Virus record (IMG/VR): IMGVR_UViG_3300042504_002519
Span: 13,535 to 77,534 of that record
Direction: 5' to 3' (one strand)
DNA length: 64,000 nucleotides
DNA from: a virus
Positions 6,911 to 62,688 of the stretch are shown here, piece after piece. Every line of letters begins with the position of its first letter. The stretch's first letter is position 1. The translations under genes and the position numbers were made by a program. Below the pieces are notes generated by a model. That model saw only the letters and a list, made by a program, of their open reading frames with translations, was not told where the DNA came from and searched no databases.

Positions 6911-7092
6911 GCGCCACCATCGCCCGGCTGCGCCCCTGCCTGGCCGGGCGGCTATCCATTTTTCTGCATACACGGGCCCAGTACTTACGCCAGATCATTG
7001 CTAGGCACCCTGAGGATGGGGCTGCACAGCACGAACTGGAGCTAGTGCTAGCCCAGATCCGATACCTACCCTTTATTGAGGAACGACCATGA
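6907..7092 (+). CDS. Hypothetical protein
   Basis: Overlapping stop/start coupling on both sides. Confidence 0.5.
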   Translation: MSATIARLRPCLAGRLSIFLHTRAQYLRQIIARHPEDGAAQHELELVLAQIRYLPFIEERP

Positions 7093-7469
7093 ACTTACCC
7101 GCTGACCCTACCCGCACCGAGATCTTGGCCTACCTGCTGGCCTACTCAGCCTACTGGCGGGGTGAACTAGAGAGCGCTATGGATGCGGCCAATGTGCCGT
7201 CGAGCAGCATTAACGCCATCCAGGGCGACTTATCTGCCGCCCTGTTTGCTGAAACGACCATGAACTTACCCGCTGACCCTACCCGCTCCGAGGTGCTGGC
7301 CTACCTGCTGGCCTACTCAGCCTACTGGCGGGGTGAACTAGAGAGCGCTATGGATGCGGCCAATGTGCCGTCGAGCAGCATTAACGCCATCCAGGGCGAC
7401 TTATCTGCCGCCCTGTTTGCTGAAATGGCCAGAGTAAACCAAGCCCGTATGGAGGATGACGGCCTATGA
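7089..7469 (+). CDS. Hypothetical protein made of a 171-bp tandem duplication
   Basis: MNLPADPTR... occurs twice, ATGs at 7089 and 7260. Confidence 0.55.
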   Translation: MNLPADPTRTEILAYLLAYSAYWRGELESAMDAANVPSSSINAIQGDLSAALFAETTMNLPADPTRSEVLAYLLAYSAYWRGELESAMDAANVPSSSINAIQGDLSAALFAEMARVNQARMEDDGL

Positions 7470-7907: not shown

Positions 7908-8768
7908 ATGTTGACCACGCGACGGCTATCAGATGAAGTCCTCGAAATCCGGATCCGCTACACCGGGGAGGAAACCTATCACTTTTTGTTGGCCAGCGAC
8001 ATTCACCTGGATAACCCAAAGTGTGATCGCAAGTTATTCTTTTCTCACCTCGACAAAATGAAGGCTCTCGGTGGTAGGGCCTTATTTTTTGGTGATGTGC
8101 TATGCCTGATGCAGGGCAAGCGCGACAAGCGGGGCAGCAAGGCCAGCATTCGCCCCGAGCACCAGGGCGCCAACTACTTTGACTTGGTATTCAAGGAGTC
8201 CGCTGACATTCTGGCACCCTACGGCCAGGAGATCCTAATGATGGGCAACGGCAACCATGAGACAGCCATCATCAACCACCAGGAGATAGATCCCCTGGCT
8301 AATGTGGTACAGCAGCTGCGGGGCCGCCACGGGGCCATCACCGAGCACATGGGCTATCAGGGCTGGATCCGGTTTGTGTTTTACAAAGAACGGGGCCGAG
8401 GCGTCGAGGCTGTTCGGCGGTGCAACCTGTTCTTTCACCACGGGGCCTGGGGTGGTATTGTCACCAAGGGCACCATGGGCGGTGGCCGGTATGCCAGCAT
8501 TGCACCGGACGCGGATATTATCGTCAATGGCCACAATCACGAGCGCAGCATCGTTTCTCACCCTTGCTACCGGTTGATCGAAACCGGCAAGGTGCGGGTG
8601 ACGCCCCGATACCACGTGCAGTCTGGCACCTACAAGGAGGAGTTCGCTGGTAGCAACGGCTGGGCGGTGGAGCGGATCGTCATGCCGAAATCTCTAGGCG
8701 GCGTCTGGCTGAGGCTGACTCCCACTAAGTCCGCTGGCGTTGTGGTTTCACTGGAACCGGCTAGCTGA
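7908..8768 (+). CDS. Calcineurin-like metallophosphoesterase
   Basis: SDIH, GD, GNHE, HHG and GHNH motifs. Confidence 0.85.
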   Translation: MLTTRRLSDEVLEIRIRYTGEETYHFLLASDIHLDNPKCDRKLFFSHLDKMKALGGRALFFGDVLCLMQGKRDKRGSKASIRPEHQGANYFDLVFKESADILAPYGQEILMMGNGNHETAIINHQEIDPLANVVQQLRGRHGAITEHMGYQGWIRFVFYKERGRGVEAVRRCNLFFHHGAWGGIVTKGTMGGGRYASIAPDADIIVNGHNHERSIVSHPCYRLIETGKVRVTPRYHVQSGTYKEEFAGSNGWAVERIVMPKSLGGVWLRLTPTKSAGVVVSLEPAS

Positions 8769-8780
8769 AATCGGTTAACT

Positions 8781-8824
8781 GTGCTATAGTAAAGGACAGG
8801 AACCTTGAAAATTTGGTGGTAAGT
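8781..8824 (+). promoter_or_regulatory. Leader of array A: extended -10 plus boxA
   Basis: TGCTATAGT followed by GAACCTTGAAAA; 36/44 identical to the array B leader. Confidence 0.75.
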
Positions 8825-8826
8825 CG

Positions 8827-9330
8827 ACCCACTTTGGTGGGAGTTTTTCAAGGTCTATCGTCAGTCACCCCTGCTACCGGCTATACTGGCCTGGATCCCA
8901 CTTCGGTGGGGGTTTTTCGCACTCAGTCGGTAGCCACTCGCGGCCAGCGCCAAAGCCTACCCCACCCCAGTGGGGGTTTATCTGGGAGTTTTTCGCCACC
9001 CCTGCTACCGGATGATCGAAACCACGCTGGCCTGGATCCCACCCTGGTGGGCGTTTTTCGCTCGATAAGGGATCCCCATTTTGGTGGGGGTGTATCCGAA
9101 GACTGGCAACGATATGGCCCCACTTCGGTGGGAGTGGTTCTTTCCCCGTGGTTAGCCCCGCGCTGGTGGGGGTGGCTCTCGCTTTGTGCCCGCCCCACCC
9201 TGGTGGGAGTTCGTCCCAACTCTGGTTGTACCCCATCCTGGTGGGGGTTTATCTTGACTATGGCGACTCCCCACTGCTGTGGGAGTGTGTCAATCTGCAG
9301 TTCGCCCCCCACTCTGGTGGGAGTAAAACC
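8827..9330 (+). CRISPR. Degenerate type I-E-like array A (11 repeats plus 1 partial)
   Basis: Hairpins at 8827, 8896, 8960, 9037, 9074, 9118, 9156, 9193, 9231, 9269, 9307; periods 69/64/77, then 37-44 nt. Confidence 0.75.
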
Positions 9331-9380
9331 CAATTGTAAGCAAATTGCGGTAGACTGGATTTGTTAGATGCACCACTCCG

Positions 9381-9405
9381 ACCCCGGCCACGGCTGGGGT
9401 TTTTT
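9381..9405 (+). terminator. Intrinsic terminator closing the array A transcript
   Basis: ACCCCGGCC-AC-GGCTGGGGTTTTTT. Confidence 0.75.
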
Positions 9406-9427
9406 GTTGCCTGGGCATTCTGGATCC

Positions 9428-10051
9428 ATGGCAACCAAGAAACCCACACCAAAGCTACGATCCAAGCATGCGCCCAAGCCAGCACCTGGTGCTAGGCGGG
9501 GCAACCGGCAGGTGGTAAAAACGTCCGGCCAGCCTGCTACGCCAGCCTGCAAGGAGCGGGCTTTTGAGCTGTACTGCGAGCTGGGGCCTCAATGGGCTGA
9601 AATATCCAGGCGACTGAAGGGCGAAGGCTTTAACCGCTGTGGCAATACCACGATCAGCGGCTGGGCCAAAGCAGGCGACTGGCACGCCAGAAAGCTGGCT
9701 TTGTCGGAGTCACCAGGCGAAGCGGCAAAGGTGCCCCACAAGGCCAAAGTAGCACCGCCCCCACCGCCTGCTACGGACATAGGCAGCTACCGCACCAAAA
9801 AGACCAACCTGGAGCACGTCAGGACGGCGATTGAGCAGGTGGTGCAGTCGATCTGCGACGCACGGGCCACCAGCGACCTGCGGGCCATTGGCAGCTTGGC
9901 TACGGCGTTGGTAAAGCTGATTGAGTTGGAAGGCAAATTGAGCCCCGCCACGGCATCCGAGCTAGCAGCCAGGGCCGTAGATCTGGGCCTGGATCCAGAG
10001 CAATTTATGGCCGCATTGGCGGAGCAATGGCGGATCGCCAAGGCTGGCTAG
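9428..10051 (+). CDS. HTH protein, probable terminase small subunit (DUF1804-like)
   Basis: RAFELY...AEISRRL...TTISGWAKAGDW pattern with a helical C-terminus; preceded by the late motif. Confidence 0.5.
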   Translation: MATKKPTPKLRSKHAPKPAPGARRGNRQVVKTSGQPATPACKERAFELYCELGPQWAEISRRLKGEGFNRCGNTTISGWAKAGDWHARKLALSESPGEAAKVPHKAKVAPPPPPATDIGSYRTKKTNLEHVRTAIEQVVQSICDARATSDLRAIGSLATALVKLIELEGKLSPATASELAARAVDLGLDPEQFMAALAEQWRIAKAG

Positions 10052-10681
10052 AACCCCCACCGTGGTGGGGATAGCCTAGCAAGTGAACAACGCCCACAGG
10101 GGTGGGGATGGTTTGACGAGGGAGAGACGCCCACGGAGGTGGGGCTGCGTCTTGCAGGCAGGATCAACGCCCACCAAAGTGGGGCTGGCTGCAAGGACGA
10201 GAGACCCCCACGGTGGTGGGATGTGATGCAGTTCTAGGAAGTACTCCCACCGAAGTGGGGAGGTGTTTGCGAGGGAGCTATCCACCGCCGCTAGGGTTTC
10301 CTTAGCGAGAAACCCCCACCGAAGTGGGGAGGTGTTTGCGAGTTGCCTAGCAGCTCCCCCAGGTTGGCCTGCTCGAGGAACCCCCACCGAAGTGGGGTGT
10401 GCTTGCGAGATGGCTAGGGTGATGGCACCCGACCTAGTAAGGCCAGAGAAACCCCCACCGGAGTGGGGTGTGCTTTGCGAGGGCCCAGCTGGATACCGTG
10501 GCATCGGAGCTATCCACCGAGAAACCCCCACCGGAGTGGGGTGTGCTTTGCGAGGACCGCCAAGCAACTTTAAGCAGGTGAAACAAAATGAGGAGAAACC
10601 CCCACCGAAGTGGGGAGGTGGTTGCGAGACACGGCGCTGGCCGATAGCCAAAACCACGAAAAACCCCCACCGGAGTAGGAT
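10047..10681 (-). CRISPR. Degenerate type I-E-like array B (12 repeats)
   Basis: Long repeat CTCGCAAACACCTCCCCACTTCGGTGGGGGTTTCTC with 29-38-nt spacers (periods 65-74), then five 37-40-nt units. Confidence 0.8.
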
Positions 10682-10689
10682 CCACCGTC

Positions 10690-10733
10690 ACTTACCACCA
10701 AGTTGTCAAGGTTCCTACCTACCACTATAGCAC
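10690..10733 (-). promoter_or_regulatory. Leader of array B: extended -10 plus boxA
   Basis: Reverse complement GTGCTATAGT-N7-AGGAACCTTGACAACTTGGTGGTAAGT. Confidence 0.75.
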
Positions 10734-10782
10734 GGATCCACCAGCCTGGGCACCCTATAAAAAATTCTCTGAGGGATCCACC

Positions 10783-10935: not shown

Positions 10936-11201
10936 TGGACCTCCAGGCCATGCTGGATGAGCTAGACCGGCTAGGGGCCATCCTGGACGAGCTGGCCGGG
11001 GACAAGCCACAGCCACCCGGCTGGCCGCTGGGGGCGGATGAGGTTGACTATGGCCATGACATTCTGATCCGCCTGGACCGGGAAGAACCCTGCCGGATAT
11101 GCCAGCAGTTGGCCAACTGGGGATCGCTGTTATTGGGTGAGTATGTCTGCGGCCAGGGCTGCTACGATACCTTGATCTCCCCGTCCTGGGATCCTGCATA
11201 G
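10935..11201 (+). CDS. Hypothetical protein with CxxC...CxxxC
   Basis: TGATG coupling; Cys pattern. Confidence 0.5.
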   Translation: MDLQAMLDELDRLGAILDELAGDKPQPPGWPLGADEVDYGHDILIRLDREEPCRICQQLANWGSLLLGEYVCGQGCYDTLISPSWDPA

Positions 11202-12734: not shown

Positions 12735-13168
12735 AGGCCAGTCGCCACCCATTCGTCGGTGTCTCGCTTACGGAGTGATGCTTCTTTGTGCTGAGCCAGG
12801 GTTGTAGATGCATTGCGCAAGGTGACGCCGCTGCCAGCAATAGTTACCGCCCCGGCACCTAGGTTGTAGACGTAGATTACAGATCCTACAGGAAAGGCGA
12901 TACTGGCATTGGTGGGAACGGTCAACGTTCTGGCTGAAGCGCTATTGAATGCCACAACCCGACCCAGATCAGCTAAGGCCAGGGTATAGTCAGCGGTCTG
13001 GGCGGTGCCCTCTCGCAACAAGATCGGAGCAAACTCCACCATTTCGGTGGTGCCCTTGACATAGAGCCGTCCGGCTGTCGGATCAAAGGCGGGTTCAGCC
13101 GCATCCCAATTAGCAGCAGTCGGCACCCCGCTGCCTTGGCGTAACAAGATTTTGTACTTGCGCGGCAT
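12731..13168 (-). CDS. Tail-fibre-associated protein
   Basis: YTLALADLG...LTVPTNASIAFPVG...GAVTI fibre motif. Confidence 0.6.
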   Translation of the reverse strand: MPRKYKILLRQGSGVPTAANWDAAEPAFDPTAGRLYVKGTTEMVEFAPILLREGTAQTADYTLALADLGRVVAFNSASARTLTVPTNASIAFPVGSVIYVYNLGAGAVTIAGSGVTLRNASTTLAQHKEASLRKRDTDEWVATGL

Positions 13169-14346
13169 TAGAATGTCCCTCCATCAATGATTGTGGCCCA
13201 GGAGATTGTATCGGTAGCGGCATCATAGGCTAGGATGCCATCAACACTGCCACCGCCATCTAGAGCGCTGATCGTGTCTACCGTATTGGCAACCAGGACA
13301 GCACCCTTGGGGATAGTAGTCAAGCCAGTGCCGCCATAAATAGCAGGAATGACTGAGCCATTCCATATACCAGTGGTGATGGTGCCAACGCTGGTCAGGC
13401 TGGAAGCCGTGACGCCAGAGCCCAGGGCGCTAGAGCTAAGGACGGATGTACCATTGATGTAAAACGCTTTGCCAGTCAGTAGGTTTAGATGTTCACTACT
13501 GGTCCAGGCGTCGGTTGCATCCACCCAGTTGAAGGTTTTGTCAGTGGTGCCCTTAAGGGTGATCCCGCCGCCATCTGCACCGGCATCCGTGGGAGAGGCC
13601 ACATCACCCAGGACAAAGTTTTTATCGTCAATGGTGACGGTCGTGCTGTTGATCGTGGTGGTGGTGCCATTGACGGTTAGATCGCCTGTGACGGTGACAT
13701 TGCTGCCAAAGGTGACGGGCTGGGTCGCCTGGGCCATCTGGTCTAATCGACTGGTCCGCACCTGGGTGTCGAAGTCGCTGATCTTAGCCGCTGTCAATGC
13801 AGGAATATCCTCCGCTACCAATGCCCTAAATGTGGGTGCTGCATTGGCCCCGGTCGTAGGTCCAGCAAACACTTGGTTGGCGGCTTGAGTAGCTAGGGCC
13901 GCCGTTAGGGTGCCGCTGGCCGTAACAGGCGATCCGGTGACGGTGAACAAGTTGGGAAGTGATAGTCCTACACTGGTGACGCTACCACCCCCGGCAGCAG
14001 ACACCACCGATTTGACGTAGGCTGTAGTGGCCAGTCGGGTAGAGTCATCGCTCGACGCCTGGGTGACGCCTGTAGCACTGTTAGTGCCGGTGCCAGAGAA
14101 AACACAGGGTCCAGAAAAGGTTTTCGTGCCAGTGACGGTCTGAGTTGTTCCCAGGGTGGTGTAGGCACCAGGGCCAGCAATGGCGTCAATCTGGCTAGCG
14201 GTCCCGTTTTCGCCGCCAGTACCTTTACCATAGTACAGAGTATTGTCAGCCTCGTTATAGGCTAGCTCAGCGTTGGCTAAGACAAGACCCTGAACCCCAA
14301 GAGCACCCGTAGAGGCGCGTCGTTTAATTCGGATGATATTAGACAT
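13168..14346 (-). CDS. Tail fibre protein
   Basis: IRIKR...ELAYNE N-terminus, GDLTVNGTTTTINST, ADGGGI, C-terminal IDGGTF. Confidence 0.75.
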   Translation of the reverse strand: MSNIIRIKRRASTGALGVQGLVLANAELAYNEADNTLYYGKGTGGENGTASQIDAIAGPGAYTTLGTTQTVTGTKTFSGPCVFSGTGTNSATGVTQASSDDSTRLATTAYVKSVVSAAGGGSVTSVGLSLPNLFTVTGSPVTASGTLTAALATQAANQVFAGPTTGANAAPTFRALVAEDIPALTAAKISDFDTQVRTSRLDQMAQATQPVTFGSNVTVTGDLTVNGTTTTINSTTVTIDDKNFVLGDVASPTDAGADGGGITLKGTTDKTFNWVDATDAWTSSEHLNLLTGKAFYINGTSVLSSSALGSGVTASSLTSVGTITTGIWNGSVIPAIYGGTGLTTIPKGAVLVANTVDTISALDGGGSVDGILAYDAATDTISWATIIDGGTF

Positions 14347-62414: not shown

Positions 62415-62498
62415 CCCCACGCTAGTGGGGGTGGATCTGATGGCCTTTTTGCCGTTTTAGCCGCGTTCCCAAGACCCCACCATTGTGGGGGTGAGCGG
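62415..62498 (+). CRISPR. Repeat-spacer-repeat mini-array D (60-nt period)
   Basis: CCCCACGCTAGTGGGGGTGGATCT-spacer-CCCCACCATTGTGGGGGTGAGCGG. Confidence 0.65.
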
Positions 62499-62523: not shown

Positions 62524-62688
62524 ATGCACCATGACCACGCCGACGGCCTTCTCGCCATCTTAGCCACCGCCATTTTTGTGGTGGGGCTTTTTGTTGGCTT
62601 TAGCCTGGGTGCCGACCTGTGCCAGCAAAAAGCCAATGGCCCGCTGCTATGGCGGCAATTGTCCACCTTCATCCTTGGAGAACCTTGA
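62524..62688 (+). CDS. Small membrane protein
   Basis: MHHDHADGLLAILATAIFVVGLFVGFSLG. Confidence 0.5.
   Translation: MHHDHADGLLAILATAIFVVGLFVGFSLGADLCQQKANGPLLWRQLSTFILGEP

Follow-up and report, generated by a model that had tools for sequence, protein, structure and literature searches.

In a 64,000-nt window of the 77,534-bp IMG/VR virus record IMGVR_UViG_3300042504_002519 (this genome is labelled G000), a CRISPR array, hereafter array C, follows a metallophosphoesterase-like gene, and two of its spacers, spacers 1 and 3, derive, judging from their sequences, from coding alleles of that gene other than the resident one. At least four arrays are present in the record, which also carries type I-E-like cas genes of its own; spacers turn over at the leader end of the arrays, and the proximity of spacers to their source recurs at two more loci. 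We read these findings as a phage system derived from type I-E, whose spacers from foreign phosphoesterase alleles would exclude related phages, and we give this reading a probability of about 60%. Positions are those of the window, the whole stretch of DNA that was analysed, unless they are given as genome positions, and the features are collected in Table 1.

Spacer 1 (8851-8883, AGG TCT ATC GTC AGT CAC CCC TGC TAC CGG CTA) encodes RSIVSHPCYRL, and so does the gene at 8544-8576 (CGC AGC ATC GTT TCT CAC CCT TGC TAC CGG TTG). This coincidence had been pointed out in an earlier note on this DNA and was confirmed on rereading: 22 of the 33 nt are identical, and all 11 differences are synonymous, including two serine switches (AGC/TCT and TCT/AGT). 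When random sets of 11 substitutions were simulated, the peptide was kept in 0 of 2,000,000 sets. Moreover, a six-frame BLOSUM scan of the genome and 92 related loci gave spacer 1 a protein-level score of 57, where no shuffled spacer scored above 43; by nucleotide alone the match is not significant, 22/33 being reached by 13% of shuffles. A repeat search likewise confirmed that spacer 3 (8997-9023) matches 8559-8585 at 25/27, a level reached by no shuffle in the nucleotide scan. A source within G000 itself was found for only 2 of 21 spacer-sized segments, namely spacers 1 and 3. The two spacers overlap on one source site, and two spacers in L085 likewise overlap, with 22 nt shared. A tape-measure match (EQANLGELLG to EQAPIGELLA) was dropped, as its BLOSUM62 hand sum of ~33 is within the null range and it was not the best match of the scan.

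The gene belongs to phrog_7339 ('DNA repair exonuclease', E 3.8e-16), has no Pfam match and counts 237 relatives in IMG/VR. Conservation at the mirrored site is 0.83, compared to a gene mean of 0.69 (80 relatives), and the peptide is kept in all 80 relatives fetched. Array C begins with a first repeat that the site precedes by 243-284 nt; the earlier note had put the distance from the array at about 250 bp. In the complete relative G004 (74,186 bp, with direct terminal repeats), both the phosphoesterase gene and array C are absent between a 62-aa open reading frame (ORF) and a 227-aa ORF (7908-9322 compared with G004 13139-13731, L086), and the gene has other neighbours in relatives at 65-89%, indicating that it is a mobile cassette among lake phages.

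Spacer 1 differs from every close allele by 8-12 mismatches. Its nearest alleles, on the distant contigs L080, L091 and L092, match it at 28/33, with five mismatches that all fall in third codon positions, and they carry its unusual codons AGG, TCT, AGT and CTA together. Spacer 3 has one mismatch to the alleles of the sister phages L001 and L002 and two to the resident allele. Given that all 11 differences of spacer 1 are synonymous, that its codons occur in natural alleles and that spacer 3 is one mismatch away from the sister phages, a foreign coding origin is indicated for both. The earlier note had expected near-perfect matches in sister phages; this proved correct for spacer 3 and wrong for spacer 1, for which at least five mismatches remain. 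Exact and degenerate scans with the spacer-1 pattern returned the L080-type allele only (three viral contigs and one metagenome contig), and the spacer-3 pattern with Met gave zero matches.

The proposal that the resident allele had been recoded to escape the guides was not supported, apart from one nucleotide that may bear on spacer 3. Between the resident gene and that of L001, codons differ at 2 of 14 positions at the site and at 58 of 286 over the whole gene; the resident site is no more diverged from L001 or from L002 than the rest of the gene, so that spacer 1 is the outlier and not the gene, and the expected local peak of synonymous divergence was not found at the target site. For spacer 1, escape by recoding is therefore not upheld. 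For spacer 3 it is possible at 8564 only, where the resident T is synonymous (CCT for CCC) and not found in L001 and L002, CCT occurring also in the more distant L003, L006 and L007. This T is a minority allele in lakes, and equal depth ties it to the array in two of three runs, which is a hint only; it possibly fits escape from spacer 3.

Both segments occupy spacer slots in a genuine type I-E-like CRISPR array, as had been supposed. Hairpin repeats of constant length alternate with unique spacers, the leader shows polarised spacer gain, and cognate cas genes are present. The 36-nt repeat consensus (CTCGCAAAsCACmyCCCCACTyCGGTGGGGGTTTCTC), which separates unique spacers in the four arrays and five related contigs, folds as a hairpin of 5-7 bp, which is capped by a tetraloop and trailed by ~8 nt, in the manner of type I-E. 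The hairpin CCCAC-N4-GTGGG followed by GGTTTCTC occurs in 63 copies in the record, most of them within four large arrays. These share a common build: a conserved leader with TGTGCTATAGT and GGAACCTTGACAACTTGGTGGTAAGT is followed by 3-6 units of 36-nt repeat and unique 26-41-nt spacer, and then by a degenerate repeat-only tail with 37-45-nt spacing (9062-9341 and 10048-10245; genome 2210-2660), in which the stems are kept and the loops and ~13-nt linkers vary. The likeness of the leaders was judged by eye (locus L102, which holds the cas genes, at 8370-8429; the reverse complement of L102 2879-2935; 10681-10760 on the minus strand), and the leader promoter of array C was not called by a consensus promoter scan. 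The repeats of array C are more degenerate than the consensus. Six of the short tail guides have exact 11-13-nt matches elsewhere in the genome, where about two would be expected by chance. A search of the region against Rfam returned neither CRISPR-DR nor any other family, with a single sub-threshold NsiR1 match on the terminator. On the minus strand, array D has two spacers, 10274-10306 and 10482-10518, with 13 nt in common (GGTGGATAGCTCC), the end of one being the start of the other, and both were cut from a single source site.

Spacer turnover is polarised to the leader end, as in CRISPR arrays generally. Relatives at 80-95% nucleotide identity have the same repeats and mostly other spacers; trailer-end spacers are common to the relatives and leader-end spacers are unique. 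This is illustrated by L002 (95% phosphoesterase identity), in which leader, spacer 2 and distal tail are as in G000 and the spacer-1 unit and the spacer-3 block are missing, and by L001 (96%), which has the tail of array C only. We also followed the array in lake-water metagenomes drawn from several studies (records dated 2020-2025). Contigs identical to 8737-8957, spacer 1 included, coexist there with contigs that skip exactly 68-69 nt (X1, X2), and the skipped stretch is the spacer-1 repeat-spacer unit. One lake variant is without the whole array, and the depth of the array is about one tenth of that of the gene. Over array D, lake contigs show other sequences of 28-38 nt between the same repeats.

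The cas locus (genome 3291-8010, locus L102) lies 5.5-10.2 kb before window base 1 and 13-18 kb upstream of array C. Within it, a short cas8e, cas6e, cas7e and cas5e span genome 3291-7277 and are flanked by the divergent arrays A and B. On the plus strand the order is a gene for a 214-aa PD-(D/E)xK-like protein, cas6e, cas7e, a short cas5e and a gene of 183 aa whose end is Rho_N/SAP-like, with solitary repeats after cas6e and after cas5e; cas8e is on the minus strand. Cas6e (PF08798, E 1e-26), Cas7e (PF09344, E 2e-66) and the short Cas5e of 155 aa (PADLOC Cas5e, E 1e-40) were identified by profile. For the short Cas8e (272 aa), PF09481 is present in homologues at 40-55% identity, an alignment of its profile (hhalign 96%, E 3e-9) covers residues 3-279 of Thermus thermophilus Cse1, and the reading frame is backed by substitution phase against a relative. 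The 214-aa protein heads the effector operon and was found only in the clade of G000. It has a D..EVK motif, a Pfam SfsA RE-domain score of 20.8 bits (cut-off 22.8) and ESM Atlas neighbours mostly of the PD-(D/E)xK clan (0.80-0.86); its AF2 structure model is unusable (pLDDT confidence score 44), with only an alpha-beta-beta-beta-alpha-beta order to be read from it.

We found no match to Cas1 (PF01867) in G000, G003 and the complete G004, and none to Cas2 (PF09707) or Cas11/Cse2 (PF09485) in G000. The Cas3 HD domain (PF18019), the only Cas3 family searched, gave no match in G000, G003 and G004 and was detected in control genomes. The 214-aa and 183-aa proteins were also negative against T. thermophilus Cse2 by hhalign and BLASTP, the hhalign probability of the 214-aa protein being 0.2% in this single comparison, which leaves room for a very divergent Cas11. 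The effector would thus be a phage-encoded, Cas3-less I-E derivative. The earlier note had assigned the guides to a host Cascade; this does not hold, as the effector genes lie in the phage itself and no cellular array with this repeat was seen in 185,579 species genomes. In those cellular genomes the hairpin and handle pattern gave nine single matches and no array with the G000 repeat. Among GenBank phages, neither the region nor the cas locus with its arrays had a BLAST match, and BLAST against plasmids returned homology to cas7e and cas6e only, with zero protospacers.

The proximity of guide and source is not confined to array C. The leader-end spacer of array D in L002 encodes LENKLSPATAAE, and the adjacent 227-aa ORF reads LEGKLSPATASE; this spacer matches the allele of L002 itself at 22/36 and the G000 allele (9926-9961) at 28/36, most differences being synonymous. 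Moreover, an array D variant in lake run X3 has a 38-nt spacer that matches 11160-11197 at 32/38 (shuffled maximum 26) and reads AGSQDGEIKVL*, against AGSQDGEIKVS* in the 158-aa ORF. Overall, a source is identifiable for only 4 of ~70 distinct spacers, at three loci that all lie within ~1 kb of arrays C and D. These targets are 0.25-0.9 kb from the arrays, on both sides of them, and the guides have mismatches to the resident alleles. When array D was compared by BLAST with five whole relative records, the only matches were to repeats. As a separate observation, the spacer of a two-repeat mini-array (62439-62462) matches 62541-62564, 100 nt downstream, at 18/24; nothing in the genome matches it better, but 6% of shuffles do as well, and the mini-array may be another guide beside its target.

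How could such spacers act? Under the exclusion reading, spacers 1 and 3 would have been captured from phosphoesterase alleles of other phages that met the carrier in the same cells, the spacers being added in trans, probably by host Cas1-Cas2. The array would be transcribed from the conserved leader promoter and its transcript cut by Cas6e at the hairpin base. Phage Cascade would then bring the guides to matching alleles in co-infecting relatives, where the target would be blocked by Cascade or cut by the associated nuclease, so that related phages are excluded. The resident allele would be spared, with 11 mismatches to spacer 1 and at least two to spacer 3. Where phages recombine freely, a guide would avoid giving rise to self-targeting recombinants only if it is tightly linked to its insensitive allele, as in a poison-antidote pair, and this probably maintains the proximity. 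Array anatomy, cas genes, leader-end turnover, foreign spacer origin and recurrent proximity are observations; from them we infer that guides are processed, loaded and used in interference, as well as how spacers are acquired and why guide and source lie close together.

Several findings weigh against this reading. Searches of IMG/VR and of JGI metagenome contigs returned no allele that is identical to spacer 1 or to spacer 3, and about 65 other spacers (from G000, G003, G004, L002, related loci and four metagenome spacers) have no source above shuffled controls. A common protospacer adjacent motif, which the earlier note had predicted, did not emerge: the 5' flanks are GAG, GAG, TCT and GGC/GCT, GAG standing at two of four protospacers without a consensus. 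The unit that contains spacer 3 is rearranged, with a half-repeat before the spacer, which measures just 27-29 nt, and the spacer lengths of 26-41 nt are unlike those of canonical I-E. Adaptation genes were not found. The nuclease is putative, the assignment to PD-(D/E)xK being a possible one that draws on the D..EVK motif, the sub-threshold Pfam match and the weak Atlas neighbours. As for expression, the evidence for the array is one RNA-library contig: a metatranscriptome contig (RNA run X22) is exact over 9133-9371, a weak hint given that DNA carry-over is possible and that contigs show no RNA ends.

The earlier note had favoured homing, or allele drive, in which the guides cut the allele of the neighbouring locus in relatives and repair passes on both the insensitive allele and the array linked to it. 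The array would then spread in the manner of a homing endonuclease gene. Such a drive would suit three independent loci where the target is 0.25-0.9 kb away from array C or D, on either side, resident alleles that mismatch the guides, arrays that are present or absent among close relatives and lakes (G004 being without gene and array C), and a putative nuclease in the cas operon. We nevertheless consider it unlikely. Genome comparisons revealed no obvious co-conversion tracts, and flank identity to relatives is unremarkable at 80-92%. Furthermore, ~65 of 70 spacers are without an identified target, near or far, and linkage selection alone can account for the proximity.

Self-regulation is the next alternative, and in our view a quite improbable one: a Cas3-less Cascade loaded with spacer 3 and the short distal guides would bind the phage's own DNA as a repressor, in the way of regulatory RNAs derived from CRISPR, and so tune either the phosphoesterase gene or read-through into the array. 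That Cas3 was not found in the HD-family search is in keeping with it, as is the near identity of spacer 3 to the resident site (25/27). Behind its last handle, array C has 12 nt (CCAATTGTAAGC, 9330-9341) of which one further copy exists, at genome 4143-4154. This second copy of CCAATTGTAAGC falls within the promoter region of 69 bp that separates cas8e from the nuclease-cas operon, right after a TACTAT box, so that the last 12-nt guide of the array matches this promoter region exactly, and the sharing may reflect autoregulation by a CRISPR RNA-like transcript. There is also a precedent in the standalone repeat-like regulatory RNAs documented for CRISPR-cas loci (10.1101/2023.03.03.530964). 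Against this, spacer 1 cannot pair with the resident gene, its 11 mismatches including the first bases, and divergence that is synonymous only points to an origin in another lineage and not to design for partial pairing. The guide moreover has coding-strand sense inside the ORF. For CRISPR interference by Cascade as a roadblock to transcription, a guide of coding-strand sense within an ORF is the weaker orientation. Finally, the units are missing in close relatives.

Could the segments be functionless scars, that is, recombination remnants or decayed gene duplications caught between expanding hairpin repeats? Spacer 3 lends itself to this, as it stands in a composite unit with a half-repeat and as the gene reads GTTTCTC, the handle consensus, right before the start of the spacer 3 homology; a recombinational origin of the spacer 3 unit is possible. 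The degenerate repeats of array C and the lack of an exact target in IMG/VR and JGI metagenome contigs also agree with it. Spacer 1 makes the explanation very improbable, since 11 synonymous differences out of 11 are not expected of a decaying local copy, given the simulations above, and since it occupies a slot of 33 nt and comes and goes as a single leader-end unit of 68-69 nt; two other strains, moreover, show the pattern again at the leader end of a different array. That the arrays, chiefly their repeat-only tails, are decoy RNAs (RNA anti-CRISPRs) that titrate host type I-E Cas6e or Cascade, with incidental spacers, would fit the long repeat-only run trailing every array, and is extremely improbable, as the phage itself encodes matching Cas6e, Cas7e, Cas5e and Cas8e, no cellular array with the G000 repeat was found among the 185,579 species genomes, and the foreign-allele spacers gained at the leader end would be left unaccounted for.

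The core phenomenon is of a known kind, that of virus-borne mini-arrays. In SPV1 and SPV2 of Sulfolobales, the spacers of such arrays are directed at close viral relatives (Medvedeva et al. 2019, PMC6858448), the orthologous locus of the carrier itself has mutations, and the proximity of target and array was reported and left unexplained (PMC6858448). The phage mini-arrays of Faure et al. 2019, as cited in PMC6858448, have spacers that target adjacent genes of related viruses. G000 resembles SPV1 and SPV2 in having virus-borne arrays with a leader in front, spacers that match related viruses and change between strains, and a mutated orthologous locus in the carrier. Unlike in SPV1 and SPV2, the effector complex is encoded by the virus itself, the arrays have 3-6 spacers and a long repeat-only tail instead of 1-2 spacers, and the matches are to diverged alleles (1-5 mismatches at best) and not at 100%. 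As expected of a conflict between viruses, the spacers match related viruses better than the carrier locus, with no match at 100%. G000 is not a case of Cas-less arrays: the phage has its own effector genes, and a host would be needed only for adaptation.

With canonical I-E of E. coli and Thermus thermophilus, G000 shares Cas6e, Cas7e, Cas5e, the N-terminal domain of Cas8e, the hairpin with its ~8-nt tail and the leader. It differs in that Cas3 (HD family), Cas1, Cas2 and Cas11 were not detected in searches of the record, in a half-length Cas8e (272 aa against ~500) and a short Cas5e (155 aa), in a repeat of 36 nt instead of 29 and spacers of 26-41 nt instead of 32-33, and in the gene order cas6-cas7-cas5. 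Variants that lack Cas3 or have swapped the nuclease are known: I-E2 has a Cas5-HNH, and I-E3 a PD-(D/E)xK nuclease fused to Cas11 (PMC12669027, PMC10910872). These share with G000 an I-E backbone in which another nuclease apparently replaces Cas3, the putative PD-(D/E)xK protein heading the G000 effector operon. Unlike I-E2, G000 has a Cas5 without an HNH domain; unlike I-E3, no Cas11 part was detectable in the 214-aa protein (single comparison, T. thermophilus Cse2); and unlike both, its locus is in a phage and served by four arrays. Among the rare variants described, the system is closest to I-E2 and I-E3, with the defining fusion of neither.

Two further systems offer parallels. Like the free-standing homing endonucleases of T-even phages, the element is linked to a nuclease, adjoins the site that it would target in relatives and has an insensitive resident allele; in G000, unlike in those phages, recognition would be guided by RNA and reprogrammable. 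The type IV-A3 CRISPR-Cas of plasmids gains spacers in trans (10.1101/2023.06.23.546257). It resembles G000 as a class 1 system on a mobile element, without an adaptation module and without Cas3, directed against competing elements; it is a type IV effector with DinG on a plasmid, whereas G000 has an I-E derivative on a phage. G000 stands apart from the known virus-borne mini-arrays by an effector that derives from I-E, is encoded by the phage and is without Cas3, with a possible stand-alone nuclease; by its four two-tier arrays; and by spacers from strongly diverged alleles.

This phage clade is a compact natural case in which to test the proximity puzzle of 2019 (PMC6858448). It has its own effector, four arrays with active turnover in lakes and three examples of leader-side spacers from diverged alleles of flanking genes, and could separate linkage selection, biased acquisition and true homing as the cause of proximity. 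Tentatively, and with more doubt than belief, the arrays and their insensitive flanking alleles may be natural RNA-guided poison-antidote or drive cassettes, in which a phage-encoded, Cas3-less Cascade with its own nuclease would attack the alleles of the neighbouring locus in co-infecting relatives, and repair by recombination, or the death of recombinants that part the guide from its antidote, would spread the array with its flanks. If true, this would account for virus-borne spacers so often targeting beside their own array. With this clade, the CRISPR systems borne by phages come to include a streamlined I-E derivative that has a Cas8e of half size and possibly a stand-alone PD-(D/E)xK nuclease.

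Table 1. Coordinates of the features described (window positions unless marked genome).
Feature	Position	Strand	Remarks
Metallophosphoesterase-like gene	7908..8768	+	286 aa; GNHE and GHNHE motifs; resident version of the source gene for spacers 1 and 3
Site mirrored by both spacers	8544..8585	+	RSIVSHPCYRLIET; directly 3' of the GHNHE motif
Array C leader	8769..8827	+	extended -10-like box TGTGCTATAGT (8780-8790) and block GGAACCTTGAAAATTTGGTGGTAAGT; common to leaders of other arrays
Repeat 1	8828..8849	+	hairpin CCCAC-TTTG-GTGGG and handle AGTTTTTC
Spacer 1, leader end	8850..8883	+	RSIVSHPCYRL; 11 synonymous differences from resident gene
Repeat 2	8884..8920	+	CTGGCCTGGAT-CCCACTTCGGTGGG-GGTTTTTCGC
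Spacer 2	8921..8948	+	27/28 in sister phage L002; no source identified
Repeat 3, then 3' half-repeat	8949..8996	+	half-repeat TGGGAGTTTTTCGC; composite, rearranged unit
Spacer 3	8997..9023	+	HPCYRMIET; 25/27 to resident gene, 26/27 to L001 and L002 alleles
Repeat 4	9024..9061	+	89% identity to repeat 2
Distal tail	9062..9341	+	seven degenerate hairpin units, 37-44-nt spacing (repeat + ~13 nt)
Terminator-like hairpin closing the array transcript	9380..9408	+	intrinsic type, 9 pairs, T run
227-aa ORF between arrays C and D	9368..10051	+	site 9926-9961 mirrored by leader-end spacer of L002 array D
Array D including leader	10048..10760	-	two-tier build as array C; spacers differ strongly among lake samples
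3' end of 158-aa ORF beside array D leader	11160..11197	-	mirrored by new spacer in lake array D variant
Large array	genome 2210-2878	-	hairpin and handle scan
Large array	genome 8430-8831	+	hairpin and handle scan
Large array C	genome 22362-22856 = window 8828-9322	+	hairpin and handle scan
Large array D	genome 23590-24149	-	hairpin and handle scan

The carrier of the arrays is a tailed bacterial phage from lakes, its record encoding a large terminase subunit, a Mu-type portal, baseplate J, an M23 tail peptidase, DnaB and integrases. Of the HIP1 octamers that are a hallmark of cyanobacteria, G000 has none, and several (GCGATCGC) stand at L003 5094-5201, in an 89%-identical relative without arrays. 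The hosts of G000 and L003 may thus differ. Upstream of the phosphoesterase gene, a 126-aa ORF (7089-7469) contains an internal tandem duplication, a segment of ~55 aa (MNLPADPTR...LSAALFAE) being present in two copies.

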